A stretch of 64,000 nucleotides of DNA from an uncultured bacterium (lineage in GTDB: Bacteria; Omnitrophota; Omnitrophia; Omnitrophales; Aquincolibacteriaceae): assembly GCA_964562525.1 (NCBI GenBank), contig CAZLTL010000002.1, forward strand, positions 82,468-146,467, read 5' to 3'. Shown here piece after piece: positions 18,412-40,398 of this stretch (positions within the stretch are counted from its first letter, which is position 1; each line of letters opens with the position of its first letter). A program made the position numbers and the translations under genes. The notes under the pieces were generated by a model. It did not search any database, was not told the origin of the DNA, and worked only from the letters and a program-made list of their open reading frames with translations.

Positions 18412-18457
18412 AAAAAGGCCGCACTGATATTTTCAGTGCGGCCTTTCTCTTTTTTAT
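18412..18457 (+). terminator. Rho-independent terminator after pyrE
   Basis: AAAGGCCGCACTGA..TCAGTGCGGCCTTT 14-bp stem followed by CTCTTTTTTAT. Confidence 0.75.
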
Positions 18458-18540: not shown

Positions 18541-18581
18541 AGAAAAAGCCCCGTGGAAGATTCCACGGGGCTTTTATTTTC
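18541..18581. terminator. Bidirectional terminator hairpin (serves the minus-strand gene 18593..19210 and the + strand)
   Basis: GCCCCGTGGAA-GA-TTCCACGGGGC flanked by an A-run 5' and TTTTATTTT 3'. Confidence 0.7.
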
Positions 18582-25464: not shown

Positions 25465-27396
25465 ATGGCGCTTATTAGTTTGCAGGGCGTTTCGCTTGCG
25501 TTCGGCGGCCCAAAATTGTTCGATGAAATGACGCTTCAAATCGAACTTGGTGAGCGCGTCGCTTTGCTTGGACGTAACGGTACGGGAAAAACCACGCTCA
25601 TGCGCGTGATCGCGCGCGAAATTTCATTGAACGAAGGTTCGGTTGTTTATCAGAAGAACAGCCGCGTGGCGTATCTTCCGCAGGAAGTGCCGGTCGATCT
25701 CGAAGGCACGGTTTTTGAAGTAGTCATCTCCGGCATGGGCGACCAGGTGAAATTGATCCGTGATTACCATCATGTGGCGCATCTGCTGCAAACCGAATAC
25801 AGCGAACAGCTCATGAAACGGCTCGACACTTTGCAGTCCGAAATGGACCGCACCAATGGCTGGGAAATTAACCAGCAAGTGGAACAAGTTGTCGCGCAAG
25901 TTCGGCTCGATCCTGAAAGTGACTTTAAAACTTTATCCGGCGGACAAAAGCGACGCGCTCTTTTAGCCAAAGCGCTTGTTTTAAAACCCGATTGTTTGTT
26001 GCTCGACGAACCGACCAACCATTTGGATATTGAATCCATCGACTGGCTCGAAGCTTTTTTGAAAGAATTCAAAGGCACCATTATTTTCGTCACTCATGAC
26101 CGTATGTTTATGACGCGGCTCGCCACTAAAATTGTGGAGCTCGACCGAGGTAAACTTTTCAGCTGGTCTTGCGATTACCCGACTTTTCTTGAGCGTAAAC
26201 AAATGGCCCTTGATGCCGAAGCCGCCGAGGGCGCGCGCTTTGATAAAAAGCTGGCGCAAGAAGAAGTTTGGATTCGTCAGGGAATTAAAGCCCGCCGCAC
26301 CCGTAACGAAGGCCGCGTGCGCGAACTTGAAAAATTGCGTTTGCAGAAAAAAGCTCAACGCAAACAAATCGGCAAAGTCAAAATGCAGGCACAGGAAGCG
26401 GATGTTTCAGGGCAGGTGGTGACGAAGGCCGATCATATTTACCAGGCTTACGGCGATAAGAATCTGATCGAAAATTTTTCAACGCGCATTATGCGCGGCG
26501 ATAAAATCGGCATCATCGGCCCCAACGGCTGCGGAAAAACCACTTTGCTTAAAATCTTGCTCGGACAAATGCCTCCGCAAAAAGGCACGGTGCATTTGGG
26601 CACGAACTTGCAAGTGGCGTATTACGATCAGCTGCGCGAAGAGCTGGATGGAGAAAAAACCGTCATGCAAAACGTCGCCGATGAAGGCGACTTTGTGCAC
26701 ATCAACGGCAAGGCGCGTCACGCCATGGGCTATTTGATGGATTTTCTTTTTTCTCCCGAGCGCGCGCGCACTCCCGCGAAAGTTTTATCGGGCGGCGAAC
26801 GTAACCGTCTTTTTCTTGCGCGCCTTTTTACTAAGCCTTGCAATACTTTGGTGATGGACGAACCCACCAACGATCTCGACATTGAAACCTTAGAATTGCT
26901 CGAAGAACTTTTGATCGAATTTTCAGGTACGGTGATTGTCGTCAGCCATGACCGCGAATTTTTAAACAAAGTGGTTACTTCAACCATTGTGTTGGACGGT
27001 AAAGGCAAAATCGAAGAATACATCGGCGGCTATGATGATTGGGTGCGCCAGCACAACTCCAAAGCCGAAACGGTTCAGCAGCAAATCGAACACGAAGAAG
27101 AGGATGAGCCCCAGCCTAAGAAAAAAGAGCCTGAGCCTGAGAAAAAAACCGCAGTTAAAAAAATGACCATGGGGGAGAAGCTCGAGCTCGAAAAACTTCC
27201 CGCGCAGATCGATAAGCTGGAAACTGAGCAAAAAGAAATTTATCTGCGCATGGCCGACCCCATGTTTCGCCATGGTAAGGCGGAGGAGATTGCCCAAATC
27301 AAACAGCGCCTCAAAGACATCGCCGAAGAGCTTAAGACGGCTTATGCCCGCTGGGAAGTTTTGCTTGAGAAAGAAAAAGAATCTCCCAAAAAATAA
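25465..27396 (+). CDS. uup: ABC-F family ATPase (Uup/YheS-like, two ABC domains, no TMD)
   Basis: Two Walker A motifs (GRNGTGKTT; GPNGCGKTT), two LSGGQ/LSGGE signatures, a linker and a charged coiled-coil C-terminus. Confidence 0.85.
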   Translation: MALISLQGVSLAFGGPKLFDEMTLQIELGERVALLGRNGTGKTTLMRVIAREISLNEGSVVYQKNSRVAYLPQEVPVDLEGTVFEVVISGMGDQVKLIRDYHHVAHLLQTEYSEQLMKRLDTLQSEMDRTNGWEINQQVEQVVAQVRLDPESDFKTLSGGQKRRALLAKALVLKPDCLLLDEPTNHLDIESIDWLEAFLKEFKGTIIFVTHDRMFMTRLATKIVELDRGKLFSWSCDYPTFLERKQMALDAEAAEGARFDKKLAQEEVWIRQGIKARRTRNEGRVRELEKLRLQKKAQRKQIGKVKMQAQEADVSGQVVTKADHIYQAYGDKNLIENFSTRIMRGDKIGIIGPNGCGKTTLLKILLGQMPPQKGTVHLGTNLQVAYYDQLREELDGEKTVMQNVADEGDFVHINGKARHAMGYLMDFLFSPERARTPAKVLSGGERNRLFLARLFTKPCNTLVMDEPTNDLDIETLELLEELLIEFSGTVIVVSHDREFLNKVVTSTIVLDGKGKIEEYIGGYDDWVRQHNSKAETVQQQIEHEEEDEPQPKKKEPEPEKKTAVKKMTMGEKLELEKLPAQIDKLETEQKEIYLRMADPMFRHGKAEEIAQIKQRLKDIAEELKTAYARWEVLLEKEKESPKK

Positions 27397-27839
27397 GCTC
27401 TGAATAAGATCCCGAATCTAAGGAAACAGATCCGGAATTTGTGCCGGTTCCGGGCTTTTGCAACCGCCTTCGCTTCTTTGTCTTTAAAATAAATTTGCTT
27501 TCCCCCTTGAATATGGGGATAGATCGTGCACCCTTTAATCATAGGCACGATTTTGAAGCTGTACTCAAAGGAGGCCATATGAACGAAGATTGGGATATCG
27601 AATAACAGCATTCCGCTAAACTGATATTTCGCTTGCTCTGATGGTCTGCGACCACAGGCAGTACTCGCTTCGCTGTTAAATACCGCGGAAGCATAAGCAA
27701 ACCCCTGACCGCGCGCATGCCTTTGTATTACCCCGATCGATGATTTAGCCTCCCTCTGAAAAAGCATATCCCCGCTATAAGCCCTTTGTCCGCGCGCTCA
27801 AAATGGATTCATTGAAATAGATGAACCAAGCGAGGCGTT

Positions 27840-28115
27840 ATGAAAAAATATTTGTTTGTAAGTACTGTCGTTGTTCTTGTTTTAATTTTTAGCGCTCCTG
27901 TTTTTGCTTATTCGGTTTCGGTTCAAGCCAAACTTCAAAATACGTGGGAACAAAAAGGTTCGCTTTGGGATGGAGCGGCGCTTCTGTTTTCGAATTTCAA
28001 AGCCGGCCAAAATAAAAATGCGGGCGTTGCTAAAGTGACGCGGCCGGTTGTGGTGCAGGAGCCGGAGTGGAGTCAGCAGTTGAATTCGATGCGTGCGTTT
28101 GCAACATCAGCTTAA
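27840..28115 (+). CDS. Small hypothetical secreted protein
   Basis: Signal peptide MKKYLFVSTVVVLVLIFSAPVFA; 91 aa; followed by a hairpin plus T-run inside repeat family D. Confidence 0.4.
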   Translation: MKKYLFVSTVVVLVLIFSAPVFAYSVSVQAKLQNTWEQKGSLWDGAALLFSNFKAGQNKNAGVAKVTRPVVVQEPEWSQQLNSMRAFATSA

Positions 28116-28119
28116 TTTG

Positions 28120-28200
28120 CTCAGTCGCCGCATGGCTTTTGTCCTCACCGCCGGACGGGCTAGCCGCTCCAAAGCCGCGGCTGGCTTCGGAAAGCCTTTT
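28120..28200. repeat. Repeat family D, copy D1
   Basis: CTCAGTCGCCGCATGGCTTTTGTCCTCACCGCCGGACGGGCTAGCCGCTCCAAAGCCGCGGCTGGCTTCGG; compare D2. Confidence 0.6.
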
Positions 28201-28202
28201 TT
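28176..28202 (+). terminator. Hairpin plus T-run inside repeat D1, after 27840..28115
   Basis: GGCTTCGGAAAGCC followed by TTTTTTG. Confidence 0.4.
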
Positions 28203-28213
28203 GCTACGGTATT

Positions 28214-28240
28214 TTTTGAACAAATGATTTTGTTCAAAAA
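28214..28240. repeat. Perfect 12-4-12 palindrome TTTTTGAACAAA-TGAT-TTTGTTCAAAAA
   Basis: Read directly; the arms resemble the family-B terminal inverted repeats (..GTTCAAAA..). Confidence 0.5.
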
Positions 28241-28329
28241 CACCTGTCGCTCAAGCGCCGATCTTTAAATAAAAGGGAATCGTTGATTTCCGCGATGCCG
28301 CAAAAAAGTGCTTTCCTGTATAAAGCAGA

Positions 28330-28402
28330 GGCGGTTGCCTTCGGCGTTTCCCGTCTTATTGCTTCCTCAGCTCGTGAATCTCGCTTCGGAAGCTGGCGCT
28401 TG
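28330..28402. repeat. Repeat family E, copy E1 (immediately upstream of arsR)
   Basis: ..TTGCCTTCGGCGTTTCCCGTCTTATTGCTTCCTCAGCTCGTGAATCTCGCTTCGG.. Confidence 0.65.
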
Positions 28403-28428
28403 ACTATATCTGCTTATGCAGATATAGT
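28403..28428. promoter_or_regulatory. Perfect palindrome ACTATATCTGC-TTAT-GCAGATATAGT abutting the arsR start; candidate ArsR operator
   Basis: 11-bp arms with a 4-bp spacer read directly; ArsR/SmtB repressors classically bind inverted repeats overlapping their own promoter. Confidence 0.5.
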
Positions 28429-28785
28429 TTGATTATGAAATTGAAAGACACGCAGGTTATTTTTGGGGCTTTGGCGGACGCGACGCGTTTCCGTATTTTG
28501 AATTTGCTCTCCGAAGGGGAGCTTTGCGTTTGCGACATCATGCAGGTTTTAAAAGCGCCGCAGTCGAAGATATCTCGGCATTTGTCTTATTTGCGCCGCG
28601 CGGGGCTTGTGGATGCGCGCAAAGAGGGCCTGTGGATGCATTACCGGCTCGCTAAGCCGAAGATCAAAGTTTTAAAGGCGGTGTTTCAGTCTTTCGGCTG
28701 CTGCCGAGAAGATTTTGCCGAGCTACAAAATGATTTGAATGAATTTCGTAAAAATAAAAACTGTCTAGTCTCTTGCTGTAAGTGA
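28429..28785 (+). CDS. arsR: ArsR/SmtB family metalloregulator
   Basis: wHTH with the canonical ..ELCVCDIMQVL.. metal site in helix alpha-3; C-terminus ends ..NCLVSCCK; a perfect palindrome abuts the start (TTG 28429 or ATG 28435). Confidence 0.8.
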   Translation: MIMKLKDTQVIFGALADATRFRILNLLSEGELCVCDIMQVLKAPQSKISRHLSYLRRAGLVDARKEGLWMHYRLAKPKIKVLKAVFQSFGCCREDFAELQNDLNEFRKNKNCLVSCCK

Positions 28786-28814
28786 TTTAGTTAAAATCAA
28801 AGGGGGTGAGAATC

Positions 28815-28850
28815 ATGGACGGTTGTTGCGGAAGCGGATGCTGCAAATAG
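28815..28850 (+). CDS. Candidate 11-aa cysteine-rich micro-ORF (MDGCCGSGCCK) between arsR and acr3
   Basis: SD AGGGGGTGAG lies 4 nt upstream of ATG 28815; four Cys in 11 residues; it ends in CCK like the ArsR C-terminus. Not in the ORF track because it is under 60 aa. Confidence 0.3.
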   Translation: MDGCCGSGCCK

Positions 28851-28927
28851 GCATTCCAATCACTCCCCACAAAGATGATGACGATCATCTTTGCCGGGAG
28901 TTTTTAAACATATGAAAAGTTGAATCG

Positions 28928-29989
28928 ATGCAAAAGCTTTCTTTTTTAGACCGGTATTTAACAGTTTGGATTTTTGCGGCCATGGCCGTGGGCGTGGCGC
29001 TTGGGTATTTCTTTCCCGGCGTTGAACGGGTTATTAATTCATTTCAAGTTGGCACGACGAATATTCCCATCGCGGCAGGACTCATTCTGATGATGTATCC
29101 ACCCCTTGCCAAGGTTCGCTATGAAGAACTGGGGGATGTTTTTAAGAATAAAAAAATTCTGATTCTAAGCCTCATCCAAAACTGGGTGATCGGTCCGGTG
29201 CTCATGTTTGTTTTGGCGGTTCTTTTTTTACGCGACCAGCCCGAATATATGGCCGGCCTTATTTTAATCGGCCTCGCGCGCTGTATTGCCATGGTGATTG
29301 TTTGGAATAAACTCGCCGAAGGCAATTCCGAATATGCCGCGGGGCTTGTGGCCTTCAACAGTGTGTTTCAGGTTTTATTTTTCAGCGCATACGCCTATTT
29401 CTTTATTTCATTTTTACCCAAGCTTTTCGGTATGGAAAGTTTCGCCGTAGCGGTTTCTATGCGCCAAATTGCCGAAAGTGTTTTTATTTATCTCGGCATT
29501 CCGTTTCTGGCGGGCATGATCACGCGATTCAGTTTGCTTAAAGCAAAAGGCGCCGCTTGGTATGAAAATCAATTTTTGCCCAAAATTAGCCCGCTAACTC
29601 TCGCGGCTTTGCTTTTCACCATTTTGATCATGTTCAGCCTCAAAGGAAATTACATCGTTCAAATCCCGCTGGATGTCGTCAAAATCACGCTCCCGCTTCT
29701 GATTTATTTTGTCGTCATGTTTCTTTTCAGTTTTTGGATGTCAAAAATAGCCGGCGCTGATTATTCCAAATCCGTCACGCTTTCATTCACCGCTGCGAGC
29801 AATAACTTTGAGCTCGCCATCGCGGTTGCCATCGCTGTTTTCGGCGTGAATTCCGGGCAAGCGTTTACCGCCGTGATCGGGCCGCTTGTCGAAGTGCCCG
29901 TCATGATTGGCTTGGTGCATGTTGCATTTTGGATTCGCGGAAAATATTTTAAAAATATCGAGATCAAACAAACCGAGGGTTGCTGCTGA
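28928..29989 (+). CDS. acr3: Arsenite efflux permease, ACR3 family
   Basis: 10-TM BART-superfamily profile; N-terminal ..[16 protein letters not shown].. and ..[17 protein letters not shown].. are typical of ACR3. Confidence 0.85.
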
Positions 29990-29990
29990 T

Positions 29991-30410
29991 ATGAAAAAAA
30001 GTGTTTTAATTCTCTGTACGGGCAATTCATGCCGCTCGCAAATGGCAGAGGGCATTTTGCGGCATTTCGGTTCCGATAAGTTCAATGTTTTAAGCGCGGG
30101 CACAAAGCCGTCAGTTGTGAACAAGACTGCAATTAAAGTGATGCAGGAAATCGGCATCGATATCTCAGAGCATCGATCGAAACACATTGATGAGTTTTTA
30201 GGTCAAAAAATAGATTTTATTATTTCAGTTTGCGACAATGCCAAAGAATCTTGCCCGATCTTTCCGGGCGGAACGACTCGTCTGCATTGGCCGTTTCCGG
30301 ATCCGCCTCACGACAAAGATATTACCGAAGCTGTTTTGAATGAGTTTCGGAAAGTGCGTGATTTGATTCTTGTTCGGTTTAAGGCTTTGGGGGAGACGGG
30401 GAAGTTTTAG
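29991..30410 (+). CDS. arsC: Arsenate reductase (thioredoxin-coupled LMW-PTP type)
   Basis: ..VLILCTGNSCRSQMAEG.. P-loop C-x5-R; downstream Cys and Asp residues; ATG 29991 lies 1 nt after the acr3 stop (the track ORF starts earlier at 29907). Confidence 0.85.
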   Translation: MKKSVLILCTGNSCRSQMAEGILRHFGSDKFNVLSAGTKPSVVNKTAIKVMQEIGIDISEHRSKHIDEFLGQKIDFIISVCDNAKESCPIFPGGTTRLHWPFPDPPHDKDITEAVLNEFRKVRDLILVRFKALGETGKF

Positions 30411-30487
30411 ATTTCTTGTCGCTACTGCTCTTGGCTTGTCATCCTCGCGAATGCGGGGATCCAGTGATTGACTCTCATGATGGTTCC

Positions 30488-30565
30488 TCGACTTGAAACT
30501 CTTCGTCTGCTCAGACAGTCGCGTCCGTTGGCGCGAAACTCGCATTCGAAGAGTTTCAATTCGAG
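30488..30565. repeat. Repeat family C, diverged partial copy C5 (reverse orientation, 3' of arsC)
   Basis: Reverse complement ..GAGTTTCGCGCCAACGGACGCGACTGTCTGAGCAGACG.. parallels the C core GAGTTCTGCGCCGAYAGGACGCAGCTGTYTGAGC. Confidence 0.4.
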
Positions 30566-30611
30566 TCTCTTCCGCAAAAGGGGCGGTGGGCTGTCAAAGG
30601 AGAAAGCCTTG

Positions 30612-30682
30612 GCTTTGCCTTCGGCGTTTCCCGTCATATTTGCCCCCTCGGCTAGTGAATCTCGCCTTTGGGAGCAGTTTTT
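30612..30682. repeat. Repeat family E, copy E2 (downstream of arsC, same orientation as E1)
   Basis: ..TTTGCCTTCGGCGTTTCCCGTCATATTTGCCCCCTCGGCTAGTGAATCTCGCCTTTGG.. is about 80% identical to E1. Confidence 0.65.
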
Positions 30683-30743
30683 ATCCTCAAAATATCGGTT
30701 GCGATTGATTTAAAATCTGACAGAATTCACAGCAGACTAAAGA

Positions 30744-30775
30744 CCAAAGACTGACGACCAATGACTTTTTCAGAG
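30744..30775. promoter_or_regulatory. Tandem heptamer array in inverse orientation (AGACTAA AGACCAA AGACTGA CGACCAA TGAC) upstream of the 30822 island ORF
   Basis: Reverse complement of the TAGTCTN unit, four or more copies; it forms an imperfect inverted repeat with the 32431..32465 array across the island ORF. Confidence 0.4.
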
Positions 30776-30821
30776 CCAGTATCTTTGGAAATATTCCGAT
30801 CCCTGCTGCGATAAGGACTTC

Positions 30822-32381
30822 ATGAGAATTGTTAGGCTTCAAAAAGCGGTTAGTATAATTGCTTCGGAAATTCGAAATAATATTGAGAATCATCGTCTGC
30901 CCAAATTGGTTCGAGATGAAATAAAGGCAATCATTTCAGAGTATGTGGAAGAAATCTATAAAATCGCGGCCGTAAACTCTCTTGAAAAGCGAATTGTTGA
31001 GTTGAAGAAGGCGGATCTATCTTCTATAGCAAAAGTTTTGGACATTATTTTAGAATACCATCCCCCCAAATATACTCTTACTTTTGCGGATGAAAAAACA
31101 AGAGAAGTTGACCCGATACAAAAGATCAATGAGCTTAAGAGTTGGATTTCCAATGCTGATGGCAATCAAATTAAATTGGGCTCAATGGAAATATTATTTC
31201 GATTGGAGCTTGTTTTTGATTCCAAAATGAATGAGATAATGATGGCTTTTGAAAAGAGAAGCCCTGTTTTTAAGAGAGTCAAACAAGATGTTCTTGCTAA
31301 ACTTAAAAAAGTTAGAAAAGATGACCTGTTATTGTTGTGGGCAGATTTGAAATCTAAGTTTCGAAATAAAGATGATGATCATCACGGCTACGTTTTTTAT
31401 AAAGATATTATTCCTGAGGATTTTTGGGATATATCACCCAAGTCAATTTCGTTAGATGAGGTGGCGGAAAGATATGCAGATTTTATTGTCGAATATAAAC
31501 CGCTTACTGTGCGGAGAATGATAGCTGAAGGTTACAATGCTTACCCAGTTGGGCCATTGGGGATTGCCCGCAGCCTAGCCCTCTCCTCATCTCAAGGAAA
31601 AAATAATGTTTCGGAGTTTGATGTGTTGGTAATTCGAACTTTAAGCAAAGTTATTAGCCTTTTTGAGAAAATTACATATGCAAATAAATCAGAACTAGCC
31701 AGAGCTATTAACGCCAATCAAGACTCGTTTGTTTTTGACGGTGAGTTTTTTCAAGCCGCAAAAAAAGAATTGGAGGAAATGCGAAATAATTCGTCGGTGA
31801 GTTTTGTGGAAAGCCTTTCAGCGTCTATGGAAAGATTAAATAGCTACGCCATGGAAAATCAAAGTTCTGGCTCTAAAGTTGAAAGACTGCTCTTTAACTA
31901 TAAGCTCTCGCGTGAGGTTTCGCCCCCTGATATTTCAGCTGGTAAGAAAAATGAAATAGCTCTACAGAAGGATCTTTGTAAGTTTCTCATAGAGAATGAT
32001 ATTGTTGCATATGGGAAAATCTTTGGTAGAAGCCAAATTGATTTTTATATAAAAGAAGGGGAGCTTCCGATTGCTGAAGAGTATGTTGTGGAAACAAAAG
32101 TTTTTCGTAGAGGCAGGGCTGTTAATCCAAGTGTGATAAAGGCAAATTTAGTGCAGTTGCAATCTTACATGGATATTCACAAGCAGCCGCGCGGTATTTT
32201 GGCTATTTATAACTATTCGGATGATTTGATTTACGTGCCCGATAAACGTTGGTTGCATGGACAATACTGGATATTGGTGGTTAATATTGGGACAGCAACA
32301 GCAAGCAAAAGGAAAAGGTCTTTAAAAATCGTTGAATCAAGCAGCCCCAAAAATTTGATAGATATAATAGTTAATGCGTAG
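30822..32381 (+). CDS. Hypothetical 519-aa protein in an AT-rich (probably acquired) segment; no recognisable domain
   Basis: Long uninterrupted ORF at roughly 37% GC against a ~50% background; flanked by inverted heptamer arrays. The C-terminal region (..QIDFYIKEGELPIAEEYVVETKVF..) has a D..E.K arrangement faintly reminiscent of PD-(D/E)xK nucleases; this is inference only. Confidence 0.55.
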   Translation: MRIVRLQKAVSIIASEIRNNIENHRLPKLVRDEIKAIISEYVEEIYKIAAVNSLEKRIVELKKADLSSIAKVLDIILEYHPPKYTLTFADEKTREVDPIQKINELKSWISNADGNQIKLGSMEILFRLELVFDSKMNEIMMAFEKRSPVFKRVKQDVLAKLKKVRKDDLLLLWADLKSKFRNKDDDHHGYVFYKDIIPEDFWDISPKSISLDEVAERYADFIVEYKPLTVRRMIAEGYNAYPVGPLGIARSLALSSSQGKNNVSEFDVLVIRTLSKVISLFEKITYANKSELARAINANQDSFVFDGEFFQAAKKELEEMRNNSSVSFVESLSASMERLNSYAMENQSSGSKVERLLFNYKLSREVSPPDISAGKKNEIALQKDLCKFLIENDIVAYGKIFGRSQIDFYIKEGELPIAEEYVVETKVFRRGRAVNPSVIKANLVQLQSYMDIHKQPRGILAIYNYSDDLIYVPDKRWLHGQYWILVVNIGTATASKRKRSLKIVESSSPKNLIDIIVNA

Positions 32382-38194: not shown

Positions 38195-38250
38195 TTAGGT
38201 TTTGATCTATGGCTTTGAGCTCTGAGCTTTAACTTATCAGTTTCAAAAAA
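38195..38250. repeat. Repeat family A, partial or diverged copy A5
   Basis: ..GGTTTTGATCTATGGCTTTGAGCTCTGAGCTTTAACTTATCAG.. resembles the right arm of A4. Confidence 0.4.
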
Positions 38251-38254
38251 GGCG

Positions 38255-39064
38255 TTAGCCTTTTTTGATGGGGCTGATGCCGACATGACGATAGGGCTCG
38301 ATGGCTTTCAGCATGGCTTCGTGAATGAGCCCGTTTGACGCGACATTTTGCCGGCCTTTGAGCGTCATCGGATTACCTGAGTAATCCGAAACTTTTCCGC
38401 CGGCTTCGGTCACAAGCAGCATGCCCGCGGCTTTATCCCAAGCTTCAATGTTCGCTTCCCAATATCCGTCAAACCGTCCGCAGGCCACATAACACATATC
38501 GAGCGCGGCTGCGCCCACACGGCGGATATCATGTGTCAAAAGCAGAAAAGCTTTGATCATCGCCAAATAGTCGTCGATGCGTTCTTTGCGGTCATACGGA
38601 AATCCCGTTGCCATAAGTGAATGCGAAAGCGACTTGGTTTCGGAAACAAAAATTCTTTTCCCGTTTAAGAAAGATCCCGCTCCCTTGGCTGCGAAGAACA
38701 TCTCATCGCGGAAAGGGTCATAAATCGCGCCCATCATGATGACGCCTTCTTCTTCATAGGCGATGGAAACGCAAGAAGCCGGAAAAGTGTGGGCAAAGTT
38801 GGTTGTGCCGTCAATCGGGTCAATAATCCAGCGGTGATGTGAGCCTTCAATGGCAGCTGACTCTTCTGAGAGGATTGAGTGGTCGGGAAAAGCGCCCAGA
38901 ATTTTATCTAAAACGATTTTTTCGCACTCTTTATCCGTTTCCGTCACGATGCTGATCTCGGTCTTCTCCGCAAAGCTTCCGCGCGCGGAAATTTTCGCCA
39001 ACATATGCTTGCCGGCCGTGCTTGCCGCGTCCAATAGCACGCTTTTAATTTTGTCTCTGTTCAT
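38255..39064 (-). CDS. suhB: Inositol monophosphatase family protein
   Basis: ..WIIDPIDGTTNFAH.. metal-binding motif and a downstream ..WD.AAG.. motif of the IMPase/FBPase fold. Confidence 0.8.
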   Translation of the reverse strand: MNRDKIKSVLLDAASTAGKHMLAKISARGSFAEKTEISIVTETDKECEKIVLDKILGAFPDHSILSEESAAIEGSHHRWIIDPIDGTTNFAHTFPASCVSIAYEEEGVIMMGAIYDPFRDEMFFAAKGAGSFLNGKRIFVSETKSLSHSLMATGFPYDRKERIDDYLAMIKAFLLLTHDIRRVGAAALDMCYVACGRFDGYWEANIEAWDKAAGMLLVTEAGGKVSDYSGNPMTLKGRQNVASNGLIHEAMLKAIEPYRHVGISPIKKG

Positions 39065-39187: not shown

Positions 39188-40273
39188 ATGTCATATAAAA
39201 TTACTTTGATTCCCGGTGACGGTGTCGGTCCGGAAATCGCGGAAGCTTCCAAAATTGCCATTGAATCCACCGGCGTTAAAATCGAGTGGGATGTTCAGTC
39301 CGCCGGCGTGGATGTGATGGAAAAAGAAGGCACGCCGCTTCCTCAGCGCGTGATTGATTCCATCCGCAAAAATAAAATCGCTTTAAAATCTCCGATCACG
39401 ACTCCGGTCGGCGGCGGTTTCCGTTCAGTGAATGTCGCGCTCCGCAAAGAGCTTGATCTTTACGCGTGCGTGCGTCCCTGCAAATCGTATGAAGGTGTGC
39501 GTTCCCGTTACAAGAATATTGATCTCGTCATCGTGCGCGAAAACACCGAAGATCTTTATGCGGGCATTGAATTTCAAAAGGGAACGCCCGAAGCGAATCA
39601 GATTCTCGAGCTTTCTTCCAAGCTTTCGCAGAAAAAAATCCGTCCCGATTCCGGCGTCAGCATTAAGCCGATTTCGGTTTCCGGTTCCGAACGCATTGTG
39701 AAATATGCTTTTGAATACGCGCGCAAGTACAAGCGCAAGAAGGTGACCGCGGTTCATAAAGCCAACATCATGAAATTTTCCGACGGGCTTTTTCTTGAAG
39801 TGGCGCGTAATGTTGCGAAGCAATACAACGACATTCAATTCGAAGACCGCATCGTAGACAATATGTGCATGCAGTTGGTTCAAAAGCCCGAAGATTATGA
39901 TGTGTTGGTGTTGCCGAATCTTTACGGCGATATCGTTTCCGATCTTTGCGCTGGCTTAATCGGCGGTCTCGGCGTGGCTCCGGGCGCGAACATCGGCGAA
40001 GGCGGCATGCTTTTCGAAGCGACGCATGGTTCCGCGCCGAAATACAAGGGTTTGAATAAAGTGAATCCGACCGCAGTGATTTTGTCGGGCATGTTGATGC
40101 TGCGTTATATCGGTGAAACCGCCGCCGCGGACAAACTTGAAAAGGCCGTTGCTGCCGTGATCAAAGAAGGCAAAGATGTGACTTACGACATGAAAAATGA
40201 TCGCAATGATCCGAGCGCGGTTGGCACGATGCAAATGGCGGAAGCGATCGCAAAGAAAGTTAAGCAAGCTTAA
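39188..40273 (+). CDS. icd: Isocitrate dehydrogenase (NAD-type IDH/IMDH family beta-decarboxylating dehydrogenase)
   Basis: ..[13 protein letters not shown].., ..[17 protein letters not shown].., ..HGSAPKY.. family motifs; placement in a TCA gene cluster favours IDH over LeuB. Confidence 0.75.
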
Positions 40274-40279
40274 CTTTCT

Positions 40280-40398
40280 TAGTTCAAAGATTAGAAATCA
40301 AAAATCAGAACCATAGATTAAAGATTTCAAGCCGTCCGGGCATCTTTGAATTTTGAGTTATGGTTTTGAGCTCTGATCTTTGATTTCTAATTTTTAAA
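40280..40398. repeat. Repeat family A, copy A4 (3' of icd)
   Basis: ..AAAGATTAGAAATCAAAAATCAGAACCATAGATTAAAGATTTC...TTTTGAGTTATGGTTTTGAGCTCTGATCTTTGATTTC.. Confidence 0.7.

Follow-up and report, generated by a model that had tools for sequence, protein, structure and literature searches.

Is the ORF of merely 36 nt that separates arsR and acr3 in the ars operon of an uncultured Omnitrophota bacterium a gene, and what might its product do? The operon lies within 64,000 nt of contig CAZLTL010000002.1 (GCA_964562525.1); this stretch is referred to as the window and its coordinates are used throughout. The original prediction, made from the letters of the window, had described a strong Shine-Dalgarno (SD) sequence followed at ATG 28815 by an open reading frame (ORF) of 11 codons, four of them for cysteine, and both were found exactly there. 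For comparison, loci around relatives of the window's ArsR repressor were fetched, 80 from genomes, 80 from metagenomes and eight by look-up of exact proteins (L numbers). About 40 of them constitute an Omnitrophota clade whose ArsR proteins are 53-92% identical to that of the window, and all close homologues of the latter originate from Candidatus Omnitrophota. The comparison indicates that the micro-ORF is a real, conserved and hitherto unannotated gene. It probably encodes an arsenic-binding peptide or serves as a translational leader, rather than being a chance ORF.

Conservation of the micro-ORF

The element consists of two parts:

28801..28810, + strand: SD sequence AGGGGGTGAG of the micro-ORF, 5 nt before the ATG, duplex energy -17.1 kcal/mol
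28815..28850, + strand: unannotated micro-ORF MDGCCGSGCCK (ATG GAC GGT TGT TGC GGA AGC GGA TGC TGC AAA TAG)

The duplex formed by this SD with the anti-SD is the strongest in the window, where the best of 59 long ORFs reached -12.3 kcal/mol, and an SD of this strength precedes only two of 1,967 ATGs. Of the roughly 40 clade loci, about half possess an SD-led, Cys-rich ORF of 9-26 codons downstream of arsR. Nineteen distinct peptide variants were recovered, spread over the whole range of ArsR identities from 53 to 92%, and all of them begin with ATG or GTG 5-8 nt after an SD of the GGAGGTGA(T) type. The SD of the relatives, GGAGGTGAT, is complementary to the 16S 3′-end over 9 nt, and the duplexes range from -15 to -24 kcal/mol in all cases.

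The variants share a peculiar composition. Among 15 of them, Cys makes up 37% of the residues (67 of 183), compared to 0.9% in the genes of the window, and Phe, Trp, Tyr and His do not occur at all. No variant possesses fewer than three Cys. Both Cys codons are used (46 TGC, 21 TGT) at nearly the ratio of the genome, all four Gly codons occur, and the other two frames are interrupted by stops. Besides that of the window, the short forms comprise MGGCCGGCCK, MDGCCGNGCCKC, MDGCGGGCCK, MDGCGGGCCQ, MDCCGGGCC(K), MDCCDGAGCC, MDCCDKGCC, MDRCCGGGCKC, MDRCCDGGCEC, MDCCGGGTGCCR and MDDKKKKGCCGCCSC, while the long forms MNDCKCGQSCKCCDDTAGCC, MKKLIKKIKECCKECRCCKCCC, MKKRIKKLKKCCCKTCRCSRRACCPC and MKKETKQPKKCCCGDCKCCKCS contain seven to nine Cys. 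The variant of L003 and L083 includes exactly CCGGCC. Residues other than Cys that diverged loci have in common are Asp2 and the Lys-rich N-terminus MKKxIKKxKK (L016 and L164). Thus, start codons at a proper distance from their SD coincide with a frame in which amino acids are retained while codons vary synonymously, as expected of a small protein-coding gene. The original prediction was to be abandoned if the reading frame had turned out not to be conserved in related loci; the 19 variants, the exchange of TGT and TGC and the stops in the alternative frames speak in its favor.

The element is also specific to its position. Both strands of all loci and of the window, 1.64 Mb in total, were scanned for ORFs of 6-40 codons with three or more Cys, a Cys share of 20% or higher and an SD duplex energy of -10 kcal/mol or below. 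The scan gave 26 matches, 25 of which were the element directly downstream of arsR, the last one being an in-frame fragment of ArsR. No free-standing tetracysteine ORF was detected in about 120 ars loci of Planctomycetota, Elusimicrobiota, Acidobacteriota and others; apparent matches in ars loci of other phyla proved to be C-terminal parts of ArsR, ArsM or ArsD-fusion proteins (e.g. L042). Within the clade, the block of SD, micro-ORF and subsequent hairpin is approximately 95% identical in the window, L081 and L001, the last of which harbors a different transporter downstream. An independent assembly (L161, SRR13355622) differs from the region by a single mismatch over 2,841 nt. The micro-ORF is absent from its gene calls, in agreement with the expectation that peptides this short escape standard annotation because of their size.

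Searches for described relatives were negative. A permissive E-value scan of positions 27000-31000 against Rfam gave no match. With Pfam and NCBIfam, no significant match to the Cys-rich variants of 20-53 amino acids was obtained, apart from a spurious 12-bit hit to SspM (E=0.16) in NCBIfam, and literature searches on Cys-rich small ORFs in ars operons and on arsenic genes of Omnitrophota retrieved nothing relevant. The novelty is therefore a micro-gene undescribed in the family libraries and the literature searched, which is akin to thiol-rich metal(loid) ligands or to polycysteine leader ORFs.

At the position of the micro-ORF, after a second operator-like box (O2, see below) and an SD, L010 (3400-3558) and L013 (3419-3580) encode Lys/Glu-rich proteins of 52-53 amino acids. 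They end in ..SCCAP..(S/T)SCC(K/S) and did not match any Pfam or NCBIfam family; in L013, an ArsP_1 permease (PF03773) is next. They may represent a longer version of the micro-ORF product within one functional class.

The other features of the operon are:

28400..28428, + strand: sigma-70-like promoter, -35 TTGACT (28400-28405), spacer of 17 nt, -10 TATAGT (28423-28428), 10 of 12 positions matching
28403..28428, no strand assigned: operator O1, predicted ArsR dimer site, an 11-4-11 palindrome overlapping both promoter hexamers
28435..28785, + strand: arsR, ArsR/SmtB repressor of 116 amino acids (HTH_5, 1.5e-18; NF033788, 96.6 bits, cutoff 55)
28862..28906, + strand: stem-loop (arms 28862-28879 and 28884-28901, loop GACG, -23 kcal/mol) and then TTTTT (28902-28906)
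28928..29989, + strand: acr3, arsenite efflux permease of 353 amino acids (TIGR00832, 456.5 bits, cutoff 282.8; SBF)
29991..30410, + strand: arsC, arsenate reductase of 139 amino acids of the low-molecular-weight protein tyrosine phosphatase type (thioredoxin-coupled family; LMWPc, 1.1e-20; TIGR02691, 4.6e-41, under the equivalog cutoff)

A half-size MIP gene and the origin of the hairpin

In many relatives, arsR and the micro-ORF are followed not by acr3 but by a half-size MIP/aquaporin gene and then directly by arsC. The encoded proteins (103-107 amino acids) possess three transmembrane segments and a single NPA motif, and cover positions 4-102 of the 231 positions of the AqpZ profile. Hence, they would have to pair, possibly with dual topology, to form the MIP fold. 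Examples are located in L003 (3424-3747), L004 (3434-3745), L168 (1517-1828) and L164 (1933-2295). The protein database contains about 80 clusters of constant length, some of them on contigs of more than 100 kb, which are annotated as 'aquaporin', 'aquaporin NIP' or hypothetical. A literature search yielded no description of the family. A half-size aquaporin in ars operons bears on the origin of the MIP fold by duplication.

The start of the half-MIP gene overlaps the stop codon of the micro-ORF (ATGA, TAATG) or, where a micro-ORF is lacking, that of arsR (..CCK-stop). The junction TGYTGYAAATGA is identical at the end of arsR (type A loci, e.g. L005 and L090) and at the end of the micro-ORF. 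Beginning about 10 nt past the start codon, the half-MIP codons 4-19 or so (..ALAEMxGTFAxIFVGG..) form an RNA helix of 17 bp. Across 19 distinct intact genes, 88.5% of this helix is paired, compared to 39-63% if the partners are slid by one to three columns, and synonymous sites covary: the third bases of a Glu codon (GAG/GAA) and an Ile codon (ATC/ATT) combine to GC in nine, AU in seven and GU in two cases. In L089, the helix of this alignment lies at 2861-2905. The 5′ hairpin probably enforces translational coupling to the upstream ORF, be it arsR or the micro-ORF. Of the Gly codons of the micro-ORFs, 55% are GGA, compared to 20% in the window genes (p ~1e-6). Since this bias yields GGAGGA 7-9 nt before the overlapping MIP start and thus an internal SD, RNA-level constraints apply to part of the peptide sequence.

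The window itself contains, between micro-ORF and acr3, a hairpin of 18 bp with a T5 run, which the original prediction had not mentioned. The 77-nt spacer downstream of the micro-ORF aligns to the half-MIP coding region (..KALAEMxGTFAxIFVGG..) that includes the 5′ helix. Therefore, the alignment identifies the window hairpin as a relic of half-MIP with a deletion of 9 nt, namely as the remnant of its 5′ coding end (28858-28906). Relic hairpins were also found in L081, L166, L006, L008 and L098. At least eight lineages have acr3 in place of half-MIP; there, the MIP frame is decayed, the micro-ORF intact and the next start 77-109 nt away. With 77 nt between the micro-ORF stop and the acr3 ATG, the window belongs to these and lacks the stop/start overlap seen in the half-MIP relatives. 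These comparisons indicate that arsR-(O2)-micro-ORF-half-MIP-arsC is the ancestral order and that acr3 replaced the channel gene in the lineage of the window.

The stem was kept or even improved in the relics, as illustrated by the compensatory series A-U (window), G.U (L001) and G-C (L081). A U-run follows only three of about ten hairpins and was added in the window lineage, where stem-loop and T5 now look like an intrinsic terminator or an mRNA 3′ stabilizer. As the hairpin was inherited from the MIP gene and is present in loci without micro-ORF, it was not built for the latter. The same history bears on the suggestion that the micro-ORF is a regulatory leader for acr3. It was not made for this gene, because its ancestral partner in coupling was half-MIP and the acr3 junction is secondary.

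Possible functions of the micro-ORF

Tentatively, and at somewhat less than an even chance, we favor a trans-acting thiol peptide that binds As(III) or MAs(III). According to this model, an ArsR dimer would sit on the palindrome in the absence of arsenic and cover the -35 and -10 boxes, until binding of As(III) or MAs(III) to its thiols released it from O1. The micro-ORF would then be translated at a high rate into an 11-residue product in which two vicinal Cys pairs are connected by a Gly/Ser linker. Such a gene-encoded thiol ligand might be regarded as a micro-metallothionein or as a free-standing counterpart of the Cys-pair tails of ArsD, ArsM and ArsR. It could bind one As(III) via three thiolates, or two MAs(III) via one pair each, and would buffer the metalloid once the operon is induced, perhaps handing arsenic over to the transporter. 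The stem-loop behind the micro-ORF stop could favor the arsR and micro-ORF portion of the mRNA over acr3, either because transcription partly terminates there or because the 3′-end is protected. An intercistronic hairpin that reduces downstream expression has been reported for the ars operon of Bacillus sp. CDB3 (PMC4562236).

The thiol peptide is preferred because the Cys pairs were kept where coupling was lost, and because the long forms multiply their Cys to seven to nine in a metallothionein-like composition. Moreover, every variant retains at least three Cys, as many as As(III) requires, and diverged loci share residues besides Cys, i.e. Asp2 and the MKKxIKKxKK motif. The intact micro-ORFs beside decayed MIP frames in the eight or more lineages mentioned above are evidence that the peptide matters beyond coupling. 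The chemistry is precedented: ArsR proteins bind As(III) by three and MAs(III) by two Cys, vicinal pairs included (PMC11868830), and CCXXCC tags bind biarsenicals (PMC3037950). CC..CC tails on ArsD and ArsM were also seen in the fetched loci.

Several points weigh against a thiol peptide. About half of the related loci do without the micro-ORF, which is hence dispensable. The ancestral overlap of its stop with the half-MIP start and the GGA-built internal SD mean that part of its sequence is under RNA-level constraint as a translational coupler, and the hairpin came from the MIP gene and is found without the micro-ORF as well. The final CCK-stop, which is common to the 3′-end of arsR, could have been inherited by duplication rather than selected. 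Moreover, free peptides as small as 9-11 residues rarely persist for long in cells.

The main alternative, ranked only slightly behind the thiol peptide, is a cis-acting translational coupler or leader whose peptide is irrelevant. The strong SD would load ribosomes, which terminate and reinitiate at the overlapping stop/start and so serve a membrane protein gene that is poorly initiated on its own; the Cys codons might tie this delivery to the status of Cys-tRNA or thiols, or to As(III) bound by the nascent chain. In the window, a leftover leader would now act via the terminator-like hairpin before acr3. Such a function is consistent with the ATGA and TAATG overlaps of micro-ORF or arsR with half-MIP, with the conserved 17-bp hairpin shortly behind the MIP start that would hinder de novo initiation, and with the GGA-derived internal SD in front of it. 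The SD of acr3 is weak as well (-3.2 kcal/mol), and the order of promoter/operator, short ORF enriched in a single amino acid, hairpin with U-run and structural gene resembles an attenuator, for which the polycysteine short ORFs of mycobacteria, described as Cys-responsive attenuators, are a precedent (bioRxiv 10.1101/834739). On the other hand, overlap coupling is impossible in the acr3-type loci including the window, because 77-109 nt lie between the micro-ORF and the next start, and yet its frame and Cys were preserved. In the fold of the window, the micro-ORF does not mask the ribosome-binding site of acr3 (P(unpaired) 0.68), in contrast to the sequestration described for mycobacteria. The only alternative pairing found, between the SD and the 5′ arm of the terminator, is not conserved in L001 and L081, and the U-run is restricted to three of about ten hairpins. 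Furthermore, a coupler needs neither conserved Cys pairs nor Asp2 nor the Lys-rich N-termini of L016 and L164. The downstream genes do not belong to cysteine metabolism, and a ribosome stalled at these Cys codons would block the MIP start and reduce, not increase, the synthesis of the channel. Finally, the mycobacterial short ORFs are leaderless, whereas maximal SDs are present here. An attenuator switch was examined specifically. The upstream short ORF is indeed enriched in Cys (4 of 11 codons), and hairpin and U5 are present. However, no conserved mutually exclusive structure was found, and the regulated genes (acr3 or half-MIP, and arsC) are not those of the metabolism of the sensed amino acid. 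In the minimum free energy structure, the 5′ base of the terminator is the partner of the micro-ORF SD (pair probability 0.28, compared to 0.54 for the terminator stem), but the complementary bases differ in L001 and L081 and the z-score of the whole region is just -1.5. A conserved switch was hence rejected. A trans-acting thiol peptide and a role in cis are not mutually exclusive.

Three further explanations are less probable. It is unlikely that the micro-ORF is an evolutionary by-product, a duplicated arsR 3′-end that gained SD and ATG upon insertion of O2 and persists by inertia. The identical TGYTGYAAATGA junctions at the arsR end in L005 and L090 and at the micro-ORF end, as well as the patchy occurrence in roughly 50% of the loci, would fit such an origin. 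However, the element is maintained with a near-perfect 9-nt SD down to 53% ArsR identity, stands intact next to a visibly decayed MIP fragment and was independently elaborated to seven to nine Cys, and duplication does not account for the first Cys pair. Still more doubtful is a nascent-chain arsenic sensor, in which the Cys pairs of the growing chain, 9-11 residues long and still within the exit tunnel, would be cross-linked by As(III) or MAs(III), with arrest near the stop codon as the result. To this we assign a low probability, as we do to its corollary that arrest at or near the stop controls termination, mRNA stability or reinitiation for the transporter while the released peptide also acts as a ligand. 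The micro-ORF stop always lies 7-18 nt before a conserved stable hairpin or overlaps the initiation region next to one. A chance ORF or an assembly artefact, for which the length of 36 nt and the silence of the gene finders could be adduced, is refuted by the comparative data: the independent assembly is identical, the element is conserved in more than 20 loci, its SD is the strongest in 64 kb, and 25 of the 26 ORFs of this kind occur at this position.

Comparison with known systems helps to place the favored thiol peptide. R773 ArsD ends in a CC-X5-CC tail formed by Cys112-113 and Cys119-120. With ArsD, the micro-peptide shares two vicinal Cys pairs that are separated by a few residues in a Gly-rich segment without structure, the location in an ars operon and the presumed ligation of As(III)/Sb(III) (PMC4562236). 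However, ArsD is a protein of about 120 amino acids with a thioredoxin fold, an essential site composed of Cys12/13/18 and the ATPase ArsA as a partner, whereas the micro-peptide has 11 residues, no fold and no ArsA. Beyond the vicinal Cys pairs, the two have no motif in common. Metallothioneins are another point of reference, for instance SmtA, which is controlled by the ArsR-family repressor SmtB, or the Neurospora metallothionein of 25 amino acids. The micro-peptide resembles metallothioneins and phytochelatins in its low mass, at least 30% Cys, the lack of aromatic residues, CC/CxC motifs, ArsR/SmtB-type control and presumed As(III) thiolate binding. Its composition is thus metallothionein-like (~30% Cys, no aromatics, CC/CxC), while homology to a described metallothionein family was not detected with the variants of 20-53 amino acids. 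Bacterial metallothioneins comprise about 50 amino acids; the micro-peptide is far shorter, gave no significant Pfam or NCBIfam match in these variants and is linked to transporters rather than being a stand-alone storage protein. Phytochelatins, (gamma-Glu-Cys)n-Gly (PMC9917255), are made enzymatically, unlike the ribosomal micro-peptides of 9-26 amino acids.

The mycobacterial polycysteine short ORFs of Canestrari et al. (10.1101/834739) are likewise unannotated, contain consecutive Cys codons, are situated as the first cistron upstream of operon genes and possess a conserved C-terminal Cys tract with RNA structure downstream. They differ in being leaderless, in preceding genes of cysteine metabolism and in unmasking a sequestered ribosome-binding site, while the Omnitrophota element combines a maximal SD with arsenic detoxification genes, shows no sequestering pairing and stands behind an ArsR that is already arsenic-responsive. 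The synthetic CCXXCC tag, each Cys pair of which chelates one arsenic atom (PMC3037950), has the same two vicinal pairs with two or three small residues between them and is matched by the CCGGCC of L003 and L083. By contrast, the tag was selected for a rigid biarsenical, whereas the window peptide is CC-X3-CC and in nature would bind As(OH)3 or MAs(III).

Should the peptide bind arsenic, no shorter gene-encoded metal(loid) ligand would have been described; it would be the natural equivalent of the engineered tetracysteine tag, a ribosomal analogue of phytochelatins and a new component of ars operons that annotation pipelines have overlooked. The phylum Omnitrophota comprises uncultivated bacteria with very small cells, in which such a peptide could take the place of buffering of the glutathione type. 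If the element is a leader instead, control by polycysteine short ORFs would extend beyond mycobacteria and beyond cysteine metabolism. The improbable arrest peptide, if true, would be the first that senses a metalloid and among the smallest dual-function genes known. Either of the two leading readings is easily testable, given a peptide of 11 residues, an operon of four genes and an operator of 26 bp.

Operator, ArsR and flanking sequence

The transcription unit consists of arsR, the micro-ORF, acr3 and arsC; arsA and arsD were absent according to Pfam and NCBIfam scans. An ArsR-family helix-turn-helix repressor with Cys ligands adjoins an arsenite transporter and an arsenate reductase, as is typical of an ars operon. 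The arsC start lies 1 nt past the acr3 stop, and a promoter scan did not reveal a further promoter-like site between the O1 promoter and acr3. The region from promoter/operator O1 through arsC is a single transcription unit. The operon and its operator logic are ordinary.

Acr3 ends in ..EGCC-stop (29981-29989; ..TEGCC) 1 nt before the arsC ATG, and a C-terminal vicinal Cys pair directly ahead of the next start codon is common to three of the four operon products (ArsR ..SCCK, micro-peptide ..GCCK, Acr3 ..EGCC). The idea of a thiol relay that starts at the Acr3 C-terminal CC was dismissed, since this tail occurs in the window, L081, L020 and L022 regardless of the micro-ORF and no correlation was apparent.

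The palindrome that the original prediction had located at the arsR start is perfect: its arms ACTATATCTGC (28403-28413) and GCAGATATAGT (28418-28428), separated by TTAT, are 100% complementary. For a stretch the size of the window, a first-order Markov model predicts about 0.4 perfect inverted repeats with arms of 11 nt or more, while six distinct ones were observed; O1 is the sole copy of the ATCTG-N6-CAGAT box in the window. The box ATATCTGY-N4-GCAGATAT recurs 27-30 nt upstream of the arsR ATG in about 30 of the 40 clade loci. An alignment of 12 divergent loci displays a near-invariant TTGACTATATCTGYnTAAGCAGATATAnT with the ATG 7-8 nt later, whereas the flanks upstream cannot be aligned. 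Because this footprint is precisely a promoter overlapped by a dimer-binding site, kept at a fixed distance from arsR in orthologous loci, the predicted role of O1 as the ArsR operator is well supported.

In the window, the arsR ATG starts 7 nt after the last base of the -10 box and an SD is missing (-1.5 kcal/mol); arsR is thus probably translated from a leaderless mRNA. A conserved -10 box 7-8 nt before the ATG, together with the lack of an SD, was noted in 12 of 12 aligned loci.

In about half of the clade loci (~20), a second copy of the box, O2, is situated 14-23 nt past the arsR stop. It is missing from the window, which lacks a 35-bp stretch holding O2 compared to its closest relatives L081 and L001 (ArsR 92% identical), and also from L168, where the micro-ORF is retained. 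If O2 is read as a promoter, the predicted -10 box would often put the start inside or after the conserved SD. O2 may be a promoter or a roadblock operator.

The window ArsR contains C31-V-C33, C89-C90, C110 and the C-terminal C114-C115 followed by Lys, and does end in ..SCCK (..NCLVSCCK) as previously noted. Among 34 aligned homologues, C31 and C33 are invariant, C114 and C115 nearly so, and C89-C90 is conserved. The site was compared with the R773 ArsR sequence. The CVC motif, which had been called canonical, is so only in part: the R773 type-1 As(III) site in helix alpha-3 (Cys32-X-Cys34-X2-Cys37) comprises a third Cys that is absent in the window (CVCDIM within ELCVCDIMQ) and in all 34 homologues. 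Type-1 and the other types of ArsR sites have been defined previously (PMC11868830). In line with the operators of R773 ArsR, AfArsR and ArArsR, the inverted repeat lies over the promoter of arsR itself and the repressor bears Cys; Cys41/43 and Cys107/108 of ArArsR are comparable to the CVC and C-terminal Cys pairs of the window protein (PMC11868830). Unlike the known ars operators (PMC11868830), the box ATATCTGY-N4-GCAGATAT is specific to this Omnitrophota clade, arsR is apparently leaderless, many relatives possess O2, and the third type-1 Cys is missing.

Some features of the flanking sequence deserve mention. A direct repeat of about 55 nt (28331-28384 and 30611-30665, 85-96% identical in parts) brackets arsR, micro-ORF, acr3 and arsC at a distance of 2,280 nt, and a copy is also located upstream of arsR in L001 and L082. 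A scan for tRNA and tmRNA genes near these repeats as an integration site was negative. The repeat might have been left by recombination or insertion, or it might be an intergenic element present in several copies. Just before its right-hand copy, in the 400-bp non-coding stretch after arsC, there is an inverted repeat (30487-30510/30542-30565) whose 24-nt arms are 88% complementary and enclose a loop of 31 nt. Some 190 bp upstream of arsR, just past a terminator-like hairpin (28183-28196), a second perfect palindrome, TTTTTGAACAAA-TGAT-TTTGTTCAAAAA (12-4-12), extends from 28213 to 28240; its TGAACA/TGTTCA half-sites resemble operators of other ArsR/SmtB-family regulators. The four other perfect palindromes of the window with arms of at least 11 nt (18417-18443, 18545-18574, 38243-38268 and 40253-40280) are probably terminators.

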